Below are positions 11,155 to 19,000 of a stretch of 53,496 nt of DNA, in pieces; the stretch's first letter is position 1, and each line of letters opens with the position of its first letter. Below the pieces are notes generated by a model that was not told the DNA's origin, searched no databases, and was given only the letters and a program-made list of their open reading frames with translations. The stretch comes from Acidimicrobiales bacterium. Its GTDB lineage: Bacteria; Actinomycetota; Acidimicrobiia; Acidimicrobiales; QHCF01. Position numbers and translations under genes: made by a program. Where the stretch lies: contig DAIROT010000004.1 in the NCBI GenBank assembly GCA_036806345.1, positions 1 through 53,496 of the forward strand. The letters run 5' to 3'.

Positions 11155-11871
11155 TCAGGCCGTACCTACCACCTGGAATGCCTCGGCCAGGGTGCCGGTC
11201 GGCAGGCCTCCCACCTCGGCGGTGGCCGACATCCAGCCCCGGACCCGCTCGGCTACCGCCTCCTCGTCCACCAGCTGGCTCACGTGGCAGCGCAGGGCGG
11301 CGATCTTGCGCTCGAACATGTCCGTCACATCCATGAAATGGTCGGGCGACGGTGCCCCCGACAGCCACACCTCGGGGACACTGTGGGGCCCCAGACCCTC
11401 CACCAACAACTCCGGGTGGGCAAAAGCATTGCGGGCATCGGGGTAGACGGAACACAGGGCGGCCTCCCCTACCGCCAGGTGGTCGGGATGGCTGGCGTGG
11501 ATGCGCTCGAAGTTGCGCTCGGGGGAGGGGCACAGCACCCGCTCGGGCTGTACCTGGCGGATGAGGCGGGAGATGTCGCGTCGCAGCTCGAGGCTGGGGG
11601 TCAGGCGGCCATCCGGATAGCCGAGGAACACGACGTTGGACACGCCCAGGACCTTGGCCGCTGCCTCCTGCTCGGCCCGGCGGATGCCGGGTATGTCACC
11701 GCGGGGAACCTCGAGGTCGAACCCTCCGGCATCGCCATCGGTGACGATGCAGTAGGTGACGTCAGCACCGGCATCCACCCAGGTGGCCACGGTCCCGGCC
11801 GCCCCAAAGTCCACGTCGTCGGGATGGGCCACCACCACCAGGATGGGTGTGGGTGTGCTCTGCTCCCCCAC
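11155..11871 (-). CDS. PIG-L/LmbE-family N-acetylglucosaminyl deacetylase
   Basis: VVAHPDDVDFGAAGT...IVTDGDAGG zinc-site motif of LmbE/PIG-L deacetylases (MshB/Mca-related fold). Confidence 0.8.
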   Translation of the reverse strand: MGEQSTPTPILVVVAHPDDVDFGAAGTVATWVDAGADVTYCIVTDGDAGGFDLEVPRGDIPGIRRAEQEAAAKVLGVSNVVFLGYPDGRLTPSLELRRDISRLIRQVQPERVLCPSPERNFERIHASHPDHLAVGEAALCSVYPDARNAFAHPELLVEGLGPHSVPEVWLSGAPSPDHFMDVTDMFERKIAALRCHVSQLVDEEAVAERVRGWMSATAEVGGLPTGTLAEAFQVVGTA

Positions 11872-11875
11872 CGGC

Positions 11876-12460
11876 TCAGCCAGTGTGAGGGCCGGGGGCC
11901 GACGCCTGGTGGTCCGAATCCTCGACCGGATGGCCCATCCGCTTGAGCAGGGTGAGCATGTCGTCGGCGTGCTCCTCCTCCACCGCCAGAATCCCCTCGA
12001 TCATCCGGCGGGTGGTGGTGTCACCGTCACCCAGCCATCTGACGATCTCCTCATAAGAGGCGATGGCCACCCGCTCGGCCACCAGATCCTCCTTGATCAT
12101 GTCGATCAGGTCGTTGCCGGGCGCGTACTCGGCGTGGCTGCGAGCCACCAGGGTGGCCGGGTTGAAGTCCGGTTCTCCCTGGAGCTGGACGATCCGAGTG
12201 GCGGCCTGGTCGGCGTGGCCCTGCTCCTCGTTGGCGTGCTGGAGGAACTCTTGGGCCACCGGCCCGGAGTTGAGGCCCTCGGCCATGTAGTAGTGGCGCT
12301 TGTAGCGCAGCACACACACCAGCTCGGTGGCCAGCACCTCGTTCAACACGGCAATGACCCGCTCCCGGTCGGCACCGTAGGCCGAGGTGATCGGGCCCTG
12401 GTCGATGTGCTCGCGGGCGTTGCGTCGGAGAGTTTGCACGTCCGTGAGGAAGTCGCTCAT
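11876..12460 (-). CDS. Ferritin-like/bacterioferritin-family protein
   Basis: ELVCVLRYKRHYY...EFLQHANEEQGHADQAATRIVQLQG...EEEHADDM shows the paired E/ExxH di-iron ligand pattern of Bfr-like four-helix bundles. It ends 4 nt upstream of the PIG-L start. Confidence 0.7.
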   Translation of the reverse strand: MSDFLTDVQTLRRNAREHIDQGPITSAYGADRERVIAVLNEVLATELVCVLRYKRHYYMAEGLNSGPVAQEFLQHANEEQGHADQAATRIVQLQGEPDFNPATLVARSHAEYAPGNDLIDMIKEDLVAERVAIASYEEIVRWLGDGDTTTRRMIEGILAVEEEHADDMLTLLKRMGHPVEDSDHQASAPGPHTG

Positions 12461-12564: not shown

Positions 12565-14718
12565 TCAGGTGCCGCGGCCGCTCCGGCCGCTGGGGCGCCT
12601 TGACACCAGCCGAGGACCCGTTCCGACCGGAGGACGCTTGGTCGGTGGGATCGCTGTGCCCCGCCCGGCGGGTGTCCGGCTCGAACCCGCACCGGCCGAT
12701 CCCGCCCCGGCCGATCCCGCCCCGGCCGATCCCGCCCCGGCCGATCCCGCCCCGGCCGCCTGCCTGGTCGCCGTACCGGGGGCCTTGCGGGGGCGCGCCC
12801 CGGTCGCCTTTGATGTCCCGGCTGCACTGGCCTTGGTGGCCCGAGACTTGACTGACGCGGTAGTCCTGGAACCGCTTGGCTTGGTCGCTCGCGGCGCCCT
12901 CGCCTTGGCCGGCTTGGCCCTGGCCTCCTCCTGCGCCCTGACGGGACCGGCGGAGGCTCCGTTGGCTGAGCCGACGATGGTATTGATCCGCTTGAGAACT
13001 GTTGTCCTCGCCGCCCCCGCCTGTTCCCGACTGCGTACGACCTCGAGCTCTTCGGGATCGAGCTGGCGAAGCAGAGGCAGAATCTCGGCGACCCGCAGAT
13101 CGTCGTAGTCGGCAATGGGGAACATGTCGTCGTCCGCGTAGGCCTCGGGACTGGCATCGAACTCAGGGGTGGACATCCCGGAGAGCATCGGCTCGGTGGC
13201 CCGTAGCTCATCCAGCCGCCGAAGTATCGTCGATCGTCCCCGGGTGGCCAACTCTCGCTGACGGACCACGTCGTACTCGTCGGGCACCAGCTCCTCCAAC
13301 AACGGCATTATCTCTGACACCATCAGCTCGTCGTAGTCGGCGATCGGGAAGACGGCGTCGGGGTCGGCATTGGCATACGGCGTCGATGCCCCTTGCGACC
13401 ATGCCTCCTCCTCGGCGGGCCAAGGTGCCTCCTCCTCGGCGGACCTGCGCCTCGAGCCGAAGAACGACCTCCGTACGGGTACCGGCTCGGCCTGCGCCGC
13501 CGGTTGCGGTTGCGGCTCCGACTCGAGCTCCTGCTCGGCTACATCGCTGTCCTCCCACGCGGGTTCCATCGGCTGGGAGATCGCCGGAGGTATGAAGATC
13601 CGACCACGCCGGGAGCCCACTGCCGGGACGACCCCCTCCTGGTCGGCGGTCTCAACCTGGTCGACCTCGTTGCCCCCCCCAGCCTCATCGGCCGCCTTGG
13701 CCTGGTCGGTCGAGTCACGCTGGTCGGCCATATCAGCTCGGGACGGGACCGCGGTTCTGCGCCTCGATCCCAACAGCGACCGGCGCACCGGCTCGCGCAT
13801 CGATTCCTGCCCCGGTCCGGTCTCGACCACCGACTCCGCCTCTACCGCCAGCTCGGCCTCCAATACCGGCTCGGACTCAGGTCCGCTGATGCTGGGTCGG
13901 GCTGAGGTTTCCTCGGCGACGGCCCCGCGCCTTGATCCCAACAGCGACCTTCGCACCGGCACCGTCACCGGCTCCGGCAGTGGCTCAGACTCCGCGTCGG
14001 CCTGGTCGGCCTCGGCTGAGATCTCCTCGGCAACCGTCCTGCGCCTCGATCCCAGCAGGGACCGGCGTGCTGGCACCGGCTCCGGCAGTGGCTCGGACTC
14101 CGCGCCGGCCTGCGCCGGCTCGGGCGGCATCTCCTCGGCCGCGGCCCTCCGCCTCGATCCCAACCGCGACCGGCGCTCCGGCACCGGCTCCGGCAGTGGC
14201 TCGAGCTCCGCAGCGGCCGGGCCCGACTCGGGCCCCCCCTGGTCTGGCGCCCCTCTGCGCCCAGACGCTAGGTACGACCGCCGCACTGGCACCACCGCCG
14301 GCAGCGGTTCCAGCTCGCTCTGCGGTGCCGCCTCTGGGACATCGGGCTCGTCGATCTCGGCGCCCGCCCCGGGCCGCGCCTTGCGTCCGGCGCCACGAAG
14401 GACCCTGGGGGTCCTGCGGCCGGCGGGCGGGCGGACGGCCTCTACCAACTGGGTGGGCCGATTGTCCTCGACCATGTCGGCCTCGGCCACGGTGTCGGTC
14501 TCCGACCCTGCCGTCTCTCGACGTCGCCGTCCCACGGATGGGGCCGTCGCCCCCCGGTCCCGGACCCGATTGAGGGCGGTAAACACGACCAGCAGGACCA
14601 CACAAATCGCGCTGGCCCCGATAGAGACGTAGTCCAGTGCCAGCGAGCGCTCGACGAATCCAACCACCAGGGTGGCGGCGGCAGCCAACAACAGCCCAAT
14701 AGTCAGAATCAGCAACAA
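12565..14718 (-). CDS. Hypothetical membrane-anchored repeat protein (two N-terminal TM helices, six RRSxLGSRRR repeats, two helix-extended-helix-like modules, basic tail)
   Basis: TTG start at 14718, the first start codon after an in-frame TGA. N-terminus LLILTIGLLLAAAATLVVGF...IGASAICVVLLVVF. Internal repeats and the duplicated FPIADYDxLxVxEIxPLL module favour this frame over the antisense shadow ORFs. Confidence 0.7.
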   Translation of the reverse strand: MLLILTIGLLLAAAATLVVGFVERSLALDYVSIGASAICVVLLVVFTALNRVRDRGATAPSVGRRRRETAGSETDTVAEADMVEDNRPTQLVEAVRPPAGRRTPRVLRGAGRKARPGAGAEIDEPDVPEAAPQSELEPLPAVVPVRRSYLASGRRGAPDQGGPESGPAAAELEPLPEPVPERRSRLGSRRRAAAEEMPPEPAQAGAESEPLPEPVPARRSLLGSRRRTVAEEISAEADQADAESEPLPEPVTVPVRRSLLGSRRGAVAEETSARPSISGPESEPVLEAELAVEAESVVETGPGQESMREPVRRSLLGSRRRTAVPSRADMADQRDSTDQAKAADEAGGGNEVDQVETADQEGVVPAVGSRRGRIFIPPAISQPMEPAWEDSDVAEQELESEPQPQPAAQAEPVPVRRSFFGSRRRSAEEEAPWPAEEEAWSQGASTPYANADPDAVFPIADYDELMVSEIMPLLEELVPDEYDVVRQRELATRGRSTILRRLDELRATEPMLSGMSTPEFDASPEAYADDDMFPIADYDDLRVAEILPLLRQLDPEELEVVRSREQAGAARTTVLKRINTIVGSANGASAGPVRAQEEARAKPAKARAPRATKPSGSRTTASVKSRATKASAAGTSKATGARPRKAPGTATRQAAGAGSAGAGSAGAGSAGAGSAGAGSSRTPAGRGTAIPPTKRPPVGTGPRLVSRRPSGRSGRGT
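12686..12760 (-). repeat. 15-bp perfect tandem repeat (ccggccgatcccgcc, about 4.6 copies) encoding (AGSAG)n in the tail of the 717-aa protein
   Basis: Read directly: units at 12692-12706, 12707-12721, 12722-12736 and 12737-12751, plus partial flanks. In frame (15 = 5 codons). Confidence 0.95.
13440..14316 (-). repeat. Degenerate coding repeat array (period about 108 nt) giving six P-[VAE]-RRS-x-[LF]-[GA]-S-x-RR motifs
   Basis: Motifs at residues 146, 182, 218, 256, 312 and 416 of the 717-aa protein. At DNA level, ctcgatcccaacagcgaccggcgcaccgg...ccggctccggcagtggctc recurs between about 13760 and 14210. Confidence 0.85.
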
Positions 14719-14848
14719 GAAAATCCACCACTTCCGCGAGACACCGCGCCCCCTGTCACCATAGTCGTGTCAGGCAGGACAGCCAGCGGGAACACGTCGC
14801 AGCGGCACCAGTGGCCGGCCTAGTGAACTGGCCGCGACAGGTGGGTGC

Positions 14849-15532
14849 TCAGATGGAGCTTGACCGGTCCGCATCGGGGCGTTGGGCCGGAGCCGTACCG
14901 GGAGGGGCCGGGCGCGAGTTCGGGTGACGCATGTCGGGCCGCGGCGACAATGAGGGCAGGTTCTCCTCGACCCAGCGCAGGGCCTCGGCAAAGCCGGACT
15001 GCACCCGCGTCCTCTCAGCTACCAGGTAACGCTGGAGGTTGTCCACGTCTTCCTGGAGCGCCGCCCGGGTCCCGACCAGGCGGTCTATGTCGGAGCGCAT
15101 CTCAGTCGTTGCCTCCTCGGTCATCCTGCGAACGTGCTCCTCGGCCTGGGCCACCATGGCCCCGGCGTCAGCCCGTGCCCGGTTCATGGCCTCAGTTGCC
15201 TGTTGGTGAGCCTCACTGACCGCCAGGTCGGCTGTGCGTTGCGCCAGCAGCAGCGTCCGGGTGATGGAATGATCGTCTACCTCGGGCTCGACTGGGCGAG
15301 GAGGCGGCTGGAAGCGTGTATCGGAGAGGCGCGACTGGGCCTGGGACAGCTCGGTCTCGGCCTGGGCCGCCCGGGCGGCCGTCTCCCTTACCCGGTCCTG
15401 CAGCAGCTCGATACCGGCGGCCACTCGCTCGAGGAACTCGTCGACGTCGTCCTTGTTGTAGCCGCGCAGCTCGAGTCGGAACTCGATGTCCCGAAGAGTC
15501 GCCGAAGATACCTCCATAGCCATGACGCTCAT
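14849..15532 (-). CDS. divIVA: DivIVA/Wag31 cell-pole and septum scaffold protein
   Basis: LRDIEFRLELRGYNKDDVDEFLERV N-terminal DivIVA domain followed by coiled coil. The ATG at 15532 is preceded by GGAGATAGG. Confidence 0.85.
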   Translation of the reverse strand: MSVMAMEVSSATLRDIEFRLELRGYNKDDVDEFLERVAAGIELLQDRVRETAARAAQAETELSQAQSRLSDTRFQPPPRPVEPEVDDHSITRTLLLAQRTADLAVSEAHQQATEAMNRARADAGAMVAQAEEHVRRMTEEATTEMRSDIDRLVGTRAALQEDVDNLQRYLVAERTRVQSGFAEALRWVEENLPSLSPRPDMRHPNSRPAPPGTAPAQRPDADRSSSI

Positions 15533-15541
15533 CCTATCTCC

Positions 15542-15598
15542 ACACTGCTCCGCAGGGGCAAAGGCGCTTCGCAACACTGCTCCGCAGAGGCAATTGCG
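15542..15598 (-). repeat. Intergenic repeat, copy 1 (32 nt perfect, 15542-15573) plus adjacent 25-nt diverged copy (15574-15598), upstream of divIVA
   Basis: acactgctccgcaggggcaaaggcgcttcgca is identical to 15875-15906. The neighbouring acactgctccgcagaggcaattgcg matches 22 of 25 positions. Confidence 0.95.
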
Positions 15599-15609
15599 TA
15601 AAACTCATC

Positions 15610-15873
15610 TCAGCGGGCGAACAGGGGGATGAGCACCACCTGGATAACGATCAGGACGATCAGAGGGGACAGGTCGAGGCCGACGCCGCCAACTCCGATG
15701 GGAGGCAGGATCCTGCGTAGTGGAGCCAACACCGGCTCGGTGAGCTTGTTGAGGAGCTGCGCCACCCTGGAAAGCGCCGAGCCTGGCGTCGTCGGAAAAT
15801 AGCTCAGGATGATCCGGGCGAAGATGATGACGACATAGGCCTCCAGCACATAGCGAATGATGTTCGAGATCAA
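15610..15873 (-). CDS. yggT: YggT-family integral membrane protein
   Basis: IIRYVLEAYVVIIFARIILSYFP... YggT signature. The TTG at 15873 lies 7 nt after a GGAG. The ORF-track extension to 16035 overlaps sepF. Confidence 0.8.
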   Translation of the reverse strand: MISNIIRYVLEAYVVIIFARIILSYFPTTPGSALSRVAQLLNKLTEPVLAPLRRILPPIGVGGVGLDLSPLIVLIVIQVVLIPLFAR

Positions 15874-15874
15874 G

Positions 15875-15906
15875 ACACTGCTCCGCAGGGGCAAAGGCGC
15901 TTCGCA
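15875..15906 (-). repeat. Intergenic repeat, copy 2 (32 nt perfect), filling the whole sepF-yggT spacer
   Basis: Identical 32-mer. Read on the coding strand it is TGCGAAGCGCCTTTGCCCCTGCGGAGCAGTGT, followed by cTTG, the yggT start. Confidence 0.95.
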
Positions 15907-15907
15907 C

Positions 15908-16465
15908 TCAAGGTCGGTAAAGGCCCCGTTCCTGGAGGCGTTGACGCTCCTCAGGCGACACCTCGACGTTGGTTGGCGTGAGGAGGAACACGTCCTCGGC
16001 CACCTTGTCCATGGCGCCGCCCAGGGCATAGGCAACTCCGCTGCAGAAGTCGATCATTCGCCGGGCCAGGTCCCTGTCCGCCACCTGGAGGTTGACGATC
16101 ACCGGCTGCTCGATCTTGAGGCGATCCCCGATCTCCTGGGCATCGCCAAACCGCTCGGGTGCGACCACATGAACCCGGGCGCCGCGAGTCGGCACGATCT
16201 GGCGCACCACCGCTCCCCGTGTCGTCATCACCCCGGTAGCCGGTTGATCTTCGCGAGGAAGGGCCCGGATGGGAGTCATGGTCTGCTCCTCCACCGGAGC
16301 CGGGAATCCCTGCACCGATCCGCCCGGGGCCGGCCCGAACGAACGCGCCGCGCCGCGCCCTGCCACCGGCGGCGCGGGCTCTTCGTAGTGCTGGTAGTCG
16401 TCATATTCTTCGTCGTTCATGTCGAGGCCAAGGTAGACCATCGCTCGACGAATGAAAGATGCCAT
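15908..16465 (-). CDS. sepF: Cell division protein SepF
   Basis: N-terminal MASFIRRAMVYLGL membrane-targeting helix and a C-terminal ...PERFGDAQEIGDRLKIEQPVIVNL...RMIDFCSGVAYALGG SepF domain. Confidence 0.9.
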   Translation of the reverse strand: MASFIRRAMVYLGLDMNDEEYDDYQHYEEPAPPVAGRGAARSFGPAPGGSVQGFPAPVEEQTMTPIRALPREDQPATGVMTTRGAVVRQIVPTRGARVHVVAPERFGDAQEIGDRLKIEQPVIVNLQVADRDLARRMIDFCSGVAYALGGAMDKVAEDVFLLTPTNVEVSPEERQRLQERGLYRP

Positions 16466-16486: not shown

Positions 16487-17203
16487 CTATTGTCCCAGCG
16501 TCAGGCGGGGCGGACGATCACCGAAAAGAGCCCTGCCGACACGTACCATCGTGGCACCTTCTTGGACCGCCACCTCCAGGTCATCGGTCATACCCATGGA
16601 AAGCTCGGGTAGTCCCAGCCGCCGAGCGATGCCGGCCACGGCGCGGTATCCGGGCCGTGCCCCCTCTGGCTCGCCCCGCCGGCCCACGATCATCAGGCCC
16701 CGCACCTCCAAGCCGAGCTGGCGGAGGTGGCCCACCAACCCCGGTGCCGCCTGCTCAGAACAGCCGTTGCGTCCGGCACTCGATCCCTCTGGGTCGATCT
16801 GCACCAAGACGGCGGCTCCGGGAGCCCACCGAGCGATAGCAGTACCCTCCTCAGGGCGAGCCACCGACTGCCAGAGGTGGACATGGGGGGCCAGGGAGCG
16901 CACCTTGTTGCGTTGGATGGCGCCGAGAAAGTGCCAGCGAACGCCGGGAGTGTCCTGCGCCTTGACGTCCGGAGCGTCGGCGGTGCAGGCCTTGCCGGCC
17001 AGCTCGGTCGCGTAGTTCTCGCCCAGGTCCATCAATCCAGCCGCCACCGCCTCGCACACCACCGCCTGACCGAAGCCCTTGGTCACCGCCACCACCTTGA
17101 CCGCCTCGGGGGACGATCCGGCAGTGGCAATGCGCCTTCCCACCTCGGCCAGGCGCTCTCCCAGGCCAGCCGGTGCACCGTTTGCCGGCTCGCGTCGCGT
17201 CAC
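16487..17203 (-). CDS. yggS: YggS-family pyridoxal-phosphate homeostasis protein
   Basis: VVAVTKGF (PLP lysine), ...WHFLGAIQRNK... and MGMTDDLEVAV motifs. GTGA overlap with the pgeF stop. Confidence 0.85.
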   Translation of the reverse strand: MTRREPANGAPAGLGERLAEVGRRIATAGSSPEAVKVVAVTKGFGQAVVCEAVAAGLMDLGENYATELAGKACTADAPDVKAQDTPGVRWHFLGAIQRNKVRSLAPHVHLWQSVARPEEGTAIARWAPGAAVLVQIDPEGSSAGRNGCSEQAAPGLVGHLRQLGLEVRGLMIVGRRGEPEGARPGYRAVAGIARRLGLPELSMGMTDDLEVAVQEGATMVRVGRALFGDRPPRLTLGQ

Positions 17204-17898
17204 GCCGTCACCGGTCGCCAGACCACCAGGGCCTGACGCCCTTGGTCAGCCCGGGCTCGGTGGGAGAAGTAATCCGACGAGCATGCCGTGCACGGGGAAT
17301 CGGCATGGATCAGCTCGGCGCCGGCCGCCACGGTGGCAAGTCGCACCATCTCCCCCAAGTCGAGGGCGGCCTCGCCGGACTCGGTCCTGGCCCTCACCGA
17401 CGACCCGAAGCGCGTGACCACCTGATCCAGCTCCCGGGACGAGAACTGGTAGCACTCAGGGCCGATGCACGGTCCGAGGGCGGCTCGGATGTCGGTGGCG
17501 CCCAGTCCCCGCATGGTCTTGGCCGCGGCCTGCACCACTCCTTCCATCAGCCCCCGCCAACCGGCATGGACCGCACCCATCACACCCTCGGGGCTGGCCA
17601 GGGCGACGGTGGGACAATCGGCGCTGAACACGGCCAGGCATCCCAGGCTGTCGCCGCTCACCAGGGCATCGCCCGCCAGGCCCGTGCACTCCCCGGCGTG
17701 GCTCACCACCCGCACCTGGTCGCCGTGAACTTGGCGCAGCCAGCTCCACGGCCGATCCAGCACGGCCCGACGTCGTTGCGGACTGGGGCCGCCGGTGACG
17801 TCAGGGGCCAGATCACCGTCGAGGGTGGTGGTCCAACGAGCCAGGACGGGCGTTGAGCCCAGGCGGAGCGGGTCACCCCTTGAGGAAGGATGGGACAT
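17200..17898 (-). CDS. pgeF: Peptidoglycan editing factor PgeF (YfiH/laccase-domain protein)
   Basis: LRQVHGDQV..., ...CPTVAL..., HAGWRG and ...CTAC... motifs of the YfiH/DUF152 family. The ATG at 17898 overlaps the ftsZ 3' end by 26 nt, so the start is uncertain. Confidence 0.8.
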
Positions 17899-19000
17899 CG
17901 AACTCGTCGTCGTCCAAGTCGAGGTCAGGCTCGGCGAAAATATCCTCTCGTGGCGACACGACCTTCGGCCCGGCACGCTCCTCGGGCCTGGCCCGGTCCT
18001 CGTCCCAGCGCTCGAAGCCGGCCGCGATCACCGTGACCCGGACCTCGTCGCCCATGGCGTCGTCGATGACGCTGCCGAAGATGATGTTGGCGTCGGGATG
18101 GCCCACTCCATGGATGATCTCGGCTGCCTCGTTGACCTCGAACAGCCCGAGGTCGTTGCCGCCCGCGATGTTGAGCAGGATGCCCCTCGCCCCCTCGATG
18201 GAGGCCTCCAGCAACGGGCTGGTGATGGCCCCACGAGCGGCGTTGACCGCCCTGCCCTCCCCCGACGCCGAGCCGATCCCCATGATGGCCGTACCGGCAT
18301 TGCTCATGATCATCTTGACGTCGGCGAAGTCGGTGTTGATGAGGCCGGGAGTGGTGATGAGGTCAGTGATCCCCTGCACTCCCTGGAGGAGGATCTCATC
18401 GGCCATCTTGAAGGCGTTCATCATCGACGTCTTGTCGTTGGACACCGTGAGCAAGCGGTCATTGGGGATGATGATGAGGGTGTCGACCTTCTCCTTCAGG
18501 CGCTGGATGCCGGACTCGGCCTGGACGGCGCGTCGGCGCCCCTCGAACGCGAACGGCCGGGTCACCACGCCGATCGTCAGCGCCCCGAGGCTCTTGGCGA
18601 TCTCGGCCACCACCGGAGCCCCGCCAGTGCCCGTTCCACCTCCCTCTCCGGCCGTGATGAACACCATGTCAGCGCCCTTGAGGACCTCGTCGATCTCGTC
18701 ATTGTGGTCCTCGGCCGCCTGGCGGCCGATGTCGGGATCGCTCCCGGCGCCCAGCCCTCGGGTCAGCTGGCGACCGATGTCGAGCTTGACATCGGCGTCG
18801 CTCATCAACAGGGCCTGGGCATCAGTGTTCACCGCAATGAACTCGACGCCCTTTAGGCCTGCGTCGATCATCCGATTGACGGCGTTTACTCCTCCGCCTC
18901 CGATGCCGACTACCTTGATTACCGCTATGTAGTTTTGCGATGCGACCGGCATGGGCCTGTGTGCCGCCTTCCGTTGTCCACCAGTGGGGGCTATCGCCAT
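17873..19000 (-). CDS. ftsZ: Cell division GTPase FtsZ
   Basis: [11 protein letters not shown], the [10 protein letters not shown] tubulin signature, NTDFADV, and a C-terminal [12 protein letters not shown] peptide. The ATG at 19000 is preceded by GGAGGGTGAGGG. An alternative ATG lies at 18952. Confidence 0.97.

Follow-up and report, generated by a model that had tools for sequence, protein, structure and literature searches.

A predicted membrane-anchored, module-bearing protein family encoded directly after divIVA, mainly in Acidimicrobiia

The window analysed here is a 53,496-nucleotide (nt) stretch of an Acidimicrobiales genome (contig DAIROT010000004.1 of GenBank assembly GCA_036806345.1, positions 1 to 53,496), and its subject is the gene that follows divIVA on the reverse strand, marked (-) below. 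This gene is a complete open reading frame (ORF) of 717 amino acids (aa) at 12565..14718 (-), with a TTG start codon, a stop codon at 12565-12567 and the orthologues P0001-P0009 (P numbers denote proteins and L numbers loci throughout). An earlier annotation of the same DNA made from its letters alone, the sequence-only reading, had placed the ORF 130 nt behind divIVA on the same strand; this was confirmed, and the neighbour at 14849..15577 (-), which is also the invariant upstream neighbour of the family described below, was verified as divIVA by Pfam (PF05103; E=2.5e-15, 57 bits, cutoff 28). Genes for YggT, SepF, a YlmE-type pyridoxal phosphate (PLP) protein, PgeF and FtsZ lie 5' of divIVA on the same strand. 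The predicted product starts with a transmembrane (TM) hairpin and a basic juxtamembrane segment, continues with a long acidic disordered region and two folded modules, and ends in a basic low-complexity tail. Judged by sequence and gene order, the family to which it belongs is the last gene of the dcw (division and cell wall) cell-division cluster, directly after divIVA, mainly in Acidimicrobiia.

The ORF carries the marks of a coding sequence. A codon-level comparison with the orthologue at L001 gave an overall ratio of non-synonymous to synonymous substitution rates (dN/dS) of 0.38, from which we infer a coding frame under purifying selection; by part, it was lowest in the modules with their linker (0.18) and in the hairpin (0.23) and higher in the repeat region (0.43), the tail (0.46) and the juxtamembrane segment (0.59). 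The in-frame G+C content was 0.81 at third codon positions (GC3) and 0.73 and 0.59 at the first and second positions, respectively, and the TTG start occupies the same alignment column in the orthologous loci L001 and L002. Conservation of the frame in relatives, on which the sequence-only reading had made its interpretation depend, was thus found in both the dN/dS and the start. That the ORF is a long spurious or decaying frame in high-GC DNA, a notion to which its low-complexity content, the long overlapping ORFs in other frames and the TTG codon lend some colour, is hardly credible given the in-frame dN/dS values of 0.18-0.46, the protein-level homologues across a class, the domains predicted to fold confidently and the conserved start with its upstream block; the homologues and the dN/dS effectively refute it. 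The long ORFs in the other frames are the usual shadows of high-GC coding DNA.

The sequence-only reading had regarded the protein as an orphan. It belongs instead to a large family, found mainly in Acidimicrobiia (144 species genomes; 4,242 module-bearing clusters), which is uncharacterised and is named by no curated Pfam or NCBIfam model; scans of the whole protein, the modules, the tail and the disordered region against both collections returned no curated family above cutoff. A word-indexed homologue search recovered 14 close homologues, in which a near-identical hairpin is combined with basic segments and two to four FPIADYD modules, while the same type of search with a 56-aa module profile gave only seven short, uninformative fragments. 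A 15-sequence profile of the module, run exhaustively with HMMER over 1.84 billion cluster representatives (50% identity), matched 4,242 proteins at E<=1e-3; of these, 1,001 passed E<=1e-10 and 182 passed E<=1e-30. The best 150 of the 4,242 matches contained 146 new proteins (P0022-P0167), most of which begin with this hairpin, carry two to seven modules and possess a 40-residue window of net charge +10 to +20, usually at the C terminus. At least two modules were present in 78 of 83 loci, and the window protein has two. With one genome scanned per species, relatives were found in 144 species genomes; the best 80 of these were labelled mostly Acidimicrobiia, Acidimicrobiales, Acidimicrobiaceae and Microthrixaceae, and the cultured carriers among those 80 were Actinospongiicola halichondriae Hal317 at locus L019 and Salinilacustrithrix flava EGI L10123 at locus L069, both Acidimicrobiales.

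These sequences share one conserved plan: a TM hairpin, an acidic linker, two to seven acidic modules of three helices each, and a basic tail rich in Ala, Lys and Pro. The window protein shows the whole plan, with its hairpin, two modules, adjacency to divIVA, acidic linker and modules, and basic tail. Two loci in metagenome-assembled genomes (MAGs) labelled Burkholderiales (L013 and L063) have the Acidimicrobiia-type sepF-divIVA-family gene arrangement, and one in a MAG labelled Intrasporangium (L039) has the family gene only; all three are probably mis-binned. P0032 (L094, 2194-4197), on a forest-soil contig, has seven modules, bears a Cys-rich N terminus in place of the hairpin and adjoins a GGDEF gene.

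The gene order murG-murC-murB-ftsQ-ftsZ-pgeF-ylmE-sepF-yggT-divIVA-[family gene] was observed among the called genes of three homologue loci (68%, 52% and 33% identity), and the order at a fourth such locus was identical from ftsQ onward. For a wider count, all ORFs of 83 loci were searched with the window DivIVA; 75 of these had enough upstream DNA, and in 73 of the 75 a DivIVA ORF on the same strand ends 15-611 nt before the family gene (median about 95 nt). The remaining two loci also have divIVA upstream, and there the start call of the family gene is over-extended. Because the loci were found through the module, this figure is the probability of an upstream divIVA given the family gene, and not the converse. 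On the 3' side of the 717-aa ORF lie a ferritin-like gene (11876-12460 (-)) and a PIG-L deacetylase gene (11155-11871 (-)), an arrangement typical of the window's subclade and kept in L001 and L002, whereas distant family loci have ileS-dksA-lspA-rluD downstream instead; since downstream content varies, the conserved partner is divIVA and not the genes that follow. P0037 (659 aa) has a DivIVA-like coiled-coil C terminus, then an Arg-rich stretch, then the family hairpin and four modules. It was considered as a Rosetta-stone fusion of DivIVA with the family protein and rejected, the junction being an Arg-rich stretch that resembles translated intergenic DNA; P0037 is probably a gene-call read-through or a frameshift.

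The 130-nt spacer between divIVA and the ORF (14719..14848 (-)) is conserved in its proximal half in L001 and L002. Within it, a Shine-Dalgarno-like block, GGAAGTGGTGGA (14724-14735 (-)), is kept just 5' of the TTG codon in both loci, and a TATGGT hexamer resembling an actinobacterial -10 element (14758-14763 (-)) lies in the conserved block about 40 nt 5' of the start. Consensus scans of the gap, including those for sigma-70, found no promoter-like or terminator-like sites. The 717-aa gene may have its own promoter besides read-through from divIVA.

The N-terminal hairpin (residues 2-49; 14572..14715 (-)) was recognised by hydropathy and by its invariant columns and is, together with the modules, the most conserved part of the protein. 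Its two segments, residues 2-22 and 29-49, have mean Kyte-Doolittle hydropathies of 2.67 and 2.12, in agreement with the two N-terminal TM helices that had been predicted for this ORF. In alignment A1, the invariant hairpin columns are G8, L9, G20, Y30, S32, I33 and S36, and the resulting signature G..L...G.....Y.SI..S is present in the window protein. The basic juxtamembrane segment (residues 50-115, net charge +7; 14374..14571 (-)) contains the subclade-conserved motifs EDNRPTQLVEAV and PRVLRGAGRKAR, as well as the stretch RVLRGAGRKAR, which has the highest amphipathic moment outside the hairpin. By the positive-inside rule, the basic flank of a TM helix faces the cytoplasm; since the second helix is followed by basic residues (NRVRDRG...GRRRR), the bulk of the protein is expected to be cytoplasmic.

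The modules share this high conservation. Module 1 (residues 457-506, net charge -5; 13201..13350 (-)) comprises the FPIADYD lead-in and three helices, with invariant columns in alignments A1, A3 and A4; it is joined by an acidic linker (residues 507-532, net charge -7; 13123..13200 (-)) to module 2 (residues 533-582, net charge -2; 12973..13122 (-)), which shares the predicted fold. In an AlphaFold2 model of the two modules built from a 41-row alignment, the pair had block means of 91-96 for the predicted local distance difference test (pLDDT) and a predicted template modelling score (pTM) of 0.40, and each module consisted of the FPIADYD segment followed by helices of 8, 13 and 16 residues; a single module modelled alone reached a pLDDT of 85.7 and a pTM of 0.66. 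The tandem units of about 50 aa that the sequence-only reading had delimited at residues 457-506 and 533-582 therefore stand, as confidently predicted three-helix units (pLDDT >90). Because the linker is disordered in the model (pLDDT <50) and the pTM of the pair is only 0.40, the modules appear to be independent, like beads on a string.

The same reading had also likened the unit to a helix-extended-helix, SAP/Rho-N-like, nucleic-acid-binding module, and here the evidence went the other way. Profile hidden Markov models (HMMs) for the SAP, HeH and Rho_N families (PF02037, PF12949 and PF07498) matched neither the window modules at E<=10 nor any of 60 family modules at E<=0.01. Foldseek against the PDB gave best E values of 0.6 for the module pair and 5 for the single module, with generic three-helix pieces (L12, L29, AND-1/Ctf4) in the top rows, and listed no SAP, LEM, HeH or Rho domain, including among the 21 single-module matches, although the small size of a 50-aa domain limits the sensitivity of such a search. 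The module has in common with SAP, HeH, LEM and Rho_N domains that it is a small helical unit, and its membrane anchoring recalls the eukaryotic inner-nuclear-membrane HeH/LEM proteins; it differs in having three helices rather than two and in being acidic rather than basic. A SAP/HeH/Rho_N assignment was accordingly rejected. Acidity is a family-wide property of the modules (mean net charge -5.4 per 50 aa; 91% of 348 negative), which disfavours DNA binding by the module, and a protein-binding role is more likely than a nucleic-acid-binding one. Searches of PDB sequences, made with one sequence and with two profiles, yielded a single match, to the HEAT repeats of PP2A; its E value was 8e-5 over the whole sequence and 0.27 for single domains, and it was set aside as a helical-hairpin resemblance of the form LP..ilP.l.eL.d....V.

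Among curated models, only NCBIfam NF033649 (LipDrop_Rv1109c, 'lipid droplet-associated protein') is related to the module, through its C-terminal part. Two proteins with four modules, P0011 and P0013, matched it with E values of 3e-21 and 2e-22 over positions 98-195 of 198; of 60 single modules, 24 did so at E<=0.01 (best 7e-8), and module 2 of the window matched positions 139-185 of 198 at E=0.0074, with 16.3 bits for the two-module segment. These matches stay below the curated cutoff of 110 bits (best relatives 76-80 bits), the whole window protein gives no match, and the N-terminal part of the model is left unmatched: the best stretches begin at position 69 or later and the significant ones at position 98 or later. 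The relation is, at the level of sequence similarity, a shared C-terminal domain and not membership. Compared with Rv1109c and BCG1169c, the homologous part is a three-helix module of about 50 aa that corresponds to model positions ~98-195 of 198; in the present family it occurs in two to seven copies, in proteins that also have a TM hairpin and a basic tail and whose gene lies behind divIVA. The Pfam entry DUF8129 (PF26450) has weak or faint precomputed matches on P0029, P0032 and P0024 and none on record for P0006, P0009 and P0013; hmmscan listed none either, and the local Pfam copy may omit this model. Literature searches on DivIVA in Acidimicrobiia, on DUF8129, on Rv2144c and on Rv1109c found no functional study. 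With NF033649 as the sole named relative (P0011, P0013, 24 of 60 modules and the window at E=0.0074), the family could serve lipid storage or lipid homeostasis in the manner of the lipid-droplet-associated protein Rv1109c/BCG1169c, its place next to divIVA being incidental or a regulatory convenience. We consider this unlikely: the match is confined to the C-terminal ~60-100 of 198 positions and falls below the cutoff, the anchor is a bilayer-spanning hairpin, and a near-universal synteny with divIVA is hard to call incidental.

At the C terminus, a low-complexity tail (residues 583-717; 12568..12972 (-)) carries a net charge of +23 and contains 32 Ala and 25 Lys plus Arg residues. The sequence-only reading had described this tail as rich in Lys, Arg and Ala and as histone-like; its basic character was upheld, while it proved less rich in Lys, with more Arg, Ala, Ser, Thr and Gly, and lacked a match to any H1-like model. 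A 15-nt repeat inside the tail (12676..12758), encoding (AGAGS)x5.5, varies between near-identical contigs and represents a variable-number tandem repeat: P0001, at 99% identity, is one unit shorter, and P0002 two units. The extreme C terminus (12568-12660 (-), residues ~687-717), IPPTKRPPxGTGPRLVSRRPSxRSGRGT, is conserved in the subclade while the rest of the tail is not, and may be a separate docking peptide.

Across the family, charge follows a common plan: 93% of hairpin-to-module linkers are net negative and 89% of tails after the last module are net positive. The pooled tails contain 29% Ala, 14% Lys, 12% Pro, 8% Arg and 8% Thr, which in composition is of the PAKKA or histone-H1-like type, and those of relatives gave weak matches, below cutoff, to HC2 and to the Burkholderia H1-like model hist_H1_lk_Burk. 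HupB and HBHA are further proteins with PAKKA/H1-like basic tails. Since PAKKA tails bind DNA non-specifically (PMC5504291), the analogy supports a polyanion- or DNA-binding role for the tail. Like the tails of MLDS (PMC5504291), those of the family are Ala/Lys/Pro-rich and strongly basic, a likeness that is compositional and below all cutoffs. MLDS was rejected as a homologue, the likeness being confined to the basic tail; no link between MLDS and Rv1109c was found.

Between the juxtamembrane segment and the modules extends an acidic Pro-rich disordered region (residues 116-456; 13351..14373 (-)) with a net charge of -29, 45 Pro residues and six short Arg-Ser motifs. A regular-expression search of the window protein placed the motifs exactly where the sequence-only reading had them: RRSYLASGRR at residue 146 (14254..14283 (-)), RRSRLGSRRR at 182 (14146..14175 (-)), RRSLLGSRRR at 218 (14038..14067 (-)), RRSLLGSRRG at 256 (13924..13953 (-)), RRSLLGSRRR at 312 (13756..13785 (-)) and RRSFFGSRRR at 416 (13444..13473 (-)). 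Their consensus is [PV]-R-R-S-[LFY]-[LF]-[GA]-S-[RG]-R-[RG]. The second to fourth motifs are produced by a 108-nt (36-aa) tandem repeat of 2.9 copies with 78% matches (13910..14231), the copy number of which varies among close relatives: one unit is missing from P0002, and P0004 exceeds P0006 by two. By the same pattern the window protein has six RRS copies, P0002 five, P0007 and P0008 three and P0009 two, and the first and last copies, whose positions are conserved in P0004-P0009, are positional orthologues throughout the subclade. Over aligned positions in P0004-P0009, the 14-residue cores were 0.63-0.89 identical to those of the window, while the remainder of the disordered region reached 0.34-0.52; this approximately twofold higher conservation may be favoured somewhat by the alignment itself.

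At least two RRS motifs occur in nine of 167 family proteins, all nine in the window's subclade, and the array is for this reason regarded as a recent, subclade-specific addition. The sequence-only reading had asked whether a protein with TM helices, RRS motifs and a duplicated module always lies behind divIVA in related genomes; this holds for the hairpin-module protein, in effect at every locus counted, and fails for the RRS array. Furthermore, a metagenome-wide DNA scan with the back-translated pattern PVRRS[LF][LF]GSRR returned nine stretches, three of which are orthologues and six short, junk-like frames, with no other plausible protein among them. On present alignments the array is best described as a young, amplified and selected short linear motif and not as a family hallmark. 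Proteins outside the subclade (P0011-P0014, P0027, P0028, P0085, P0087 and others) are without RRS motifs; their linkers often have G/A-P-x-P-L directly after the hairpin and an acidic Trp motif (for example DDDWxxDDDWADxGE) right before the first module, which may be short linear motifs of another kind.

Six RRS serines in conserved motifs, together with the Ser/Thr-rich tail, invite the reading that the protein is a phospho-regulated hub whose RRxS motifs and tail are substrates of division Ser/Thr kinases, and division proteins of Actinomycetota are commonly kinase substrates. This reading is compatible with the others; taken as the explanation of the family it is improbable. Since 158 of the 167 family proteins lack the motifs, their phosphorylation cannot be what the family as a whole is for; Thr is the usual preference of bacterial Hanks kinases, and no adjacent kinase gene was present among the window ORFs examined.

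The helical amphipathic moment at the RRS windows (0.52-0.59) is among the highest in the protein (mean 0.25, standard deviation 0.15); on the same scale the membrane-targeting peptides of MinD, Noc, SepF and FtsA score 0.42-0.78, and the score is inflated by the weight that the scale puts on Arg. Such values bear on a DNA-independent alternative, in which the protein would be a polar or septal scaffold: a membrane-anchored polyampholyte whose tail and Arg motifs bind anionic phospholipids or the acidic modules and linkers, forming a multivalent membrane layer or condensate that organises division or elongation proteins in the manner of PopZ or MinJ rather than RacA. The strong family-wide segregation of charge, with acidic disordered region and modules set against a basic tail, speaks for such a scaffold, as do the amphipathic moments of the RRS windows and of RVLRGAGRKAR, which resemble those of the MinD, Noc and SepF peptides, the modelled behaviour of the modules as independent beads, and the varying numbers of modules (two to seven) and motifs, as expected for a tuning of valency. 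Conversely, DNA binding has been shown for tails of the A/K/P-rich type that most members have (PMC5504291), stable membrane anchoring by the hairpin makes additional lipid-binding peptides not obviously necessary, and the amphipathic-moment score is the inflated one just described. We consider this scaffold less likely than not.

The reading we prefer, with a probability of roughly 0.4 for the mechanism as a whole, is that the family protein serves alongside DivIVA as a multivalent adaptor anchored in the membrane, with its basic tail on the nucleoid or another polyanion and its modules on partner proteins. The hairpin would anchor the protein in the cytoplasmic membrane and leave the remainder in the cytoplasm, with the long, acidic, Pro-rich and flexible spacer projecting from the membrane, and the adaptor would act with DivIVA at poles or septa. 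The basic tail would bind a polyanion, most plausibly nucleoid DNA, in the way of the PAKKA/H1-like tails in MLDS, while one or more proteins would dock on the repeated acidic modules; as an outcome, the chromosome or partner proteins would be tethered to the membrane marked by DivIVA. The tether suggested by the sequence-only reading gains indirect support from these data because the anchor, the basic tail and the position behind divIVA are conserved family-wide. Noc/SlmA-type nucleoid occlusion is not known from Acidimicrobiia or from other Actinomycetota.

In the window's subclade, unequal recombination would have given rise to a variable-copy array of Pro-capped, Arg-rich motifs (PVRRS-[LF][LF]-GSRRR). 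These could be arginine-finger docking sites for the N-terminal domain of DivIVA or, alternatively, short membrane-binding amphipathic peptides. The window DivIVA carries GYNKDDVDEFLE, two acidic positions of which presumably correspond to the Asp residues that line the GpsB pocket. The DivIVA-like N-terminal domain of GpsB binds membrane-near Arg motifs, SRxxR(R/K) and (S/R)RS(R/G)(K/S)xR (PMC6335420). The RRS motif of the window is likewise short and Arg-centred, and its RRS start is like that of the Streptococcus pneumoniae PBP2a motif; the GpsB motifs are known from Firmicutes, whereas the host of the window belongs to the Actinomycetota, and docking in this case is putative. A combined version, in which a dedicated Acidimicrobiia tether between membrane and nucleoid, encoded behind divIVA and built on a hitherto undescribed acidic three-helix module of the DUF8129/Rv1109c C-terminal type, uses the RRS array in the window's lineage to dock multivalently on the DivIVA N-terminal domain and thereby couples the chromosome to the pole or septum, strikes us as rather doubtful.

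A number of points weigh against the adaptor and its docking to DivIVA. Synteny is linkage and not interaction, and the conserved -10-like element in the gap leaves open a transcription independent of divIVA. The only named relative of the module is annotated as lipid-droplet-associated and not as division-related, and in P0032 the module is used outside the divIVA context. The tail of the window protein matches no H1-like model and is Arg/Ala/Ser/Gly-rich, not Lys-rich as in a classical PAKKA tail; anionic lipid, RNA, polyphosphate or the acidic modules of the same protein would be equally possible ligands of a basic tail. The RRS motif misfits SRxxR(R/K), having a different Arg spacing and two central hydrophobic residues, and the pattern scan gave no sign of an RRS docking code common to other proteins.

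Several gene calls near the locus merit comment. The yggT ORF (141 aa; 15610-16035 (-)) overlaps sepF (15908-16465 (-)), and the YggT proteins of relatives have 87 aa; the pgeF ORF (258 aa; 17200-17976 (-)) overlaps ftsZ (17873-19000 (-)), and PgeF of relatives has 224-238 aa. The true starts of yggT and pgeF probably lie further downstream, and the divIVA ORF (242 aa, compared with 224-227 in close relatives) may be over-extended. At L001, the locus of the closest long relative, a PIN-domain gene (11849-12277) lies between the PIG-L and glycosyltransferase-4 genes, a position where the window ORF list has none. The window contains no Rfam or tRNA features.

Should the family protein prove to be a partner of DivIVA, it would stand alone in the division and polarity cluster as a component specific to the whole class Acidimicrobiia. 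It would then offer a handle on how these abundant and barely cultivated Actinomycetota of soil, water and sludge couple the membrane, the pole or septum and possibly the chromosome, and would give a first cellular context to a widespread domain, represented to date solely by a mycobacterial 'lipid droplet-associated' protein and a DUF entry. The RRS array provides a clean natural case of a short linear motif that was born and amplified by tandem duplication in a bacterial disordered region.

Among known systems, Noc attaches to DNA and to the membrane simultaneously, and MinJ, itself a membrane protein, bridges DivIVA to a partner. RacA links DNA to DivIVA at the pole of Bacillus (PMC8233713). 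The likeness of the family to RacA, Noc and MinJ of Bacillus subtilis is one of function only, with no shared domains: RacA and Noc use folded helix-turn-helix (HTH) or ParB DNA-binding domains and specific sites, whereas the family has a low-complexity basic tail alone. The closest functional precedent, by analogy, is Rv3852 of Mycobacterium tuberculosis, a non-homologous, TM-tethered nucleoid-associated protein, which directly contacts Wag31 in its N-terminal region and is found together with it at the poles (PMC8233713). It would be of the same kind as the protein proposed here, combining a basic DNA-binding region, a membrane anchor and DivIVA/Wag31 as partner, and no sequence kinship is to be expected. 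Rv3852 differs in being small, with a single C-terminal TM helix and neither modules nor an acidic disordered region, and in being restricted to slow-growing mycobacteria, and it is not known to be encoded next to wag31. A membrane-anchored partner of DivIVA with a basic tail is thus a kind of system that has already been exemplified.

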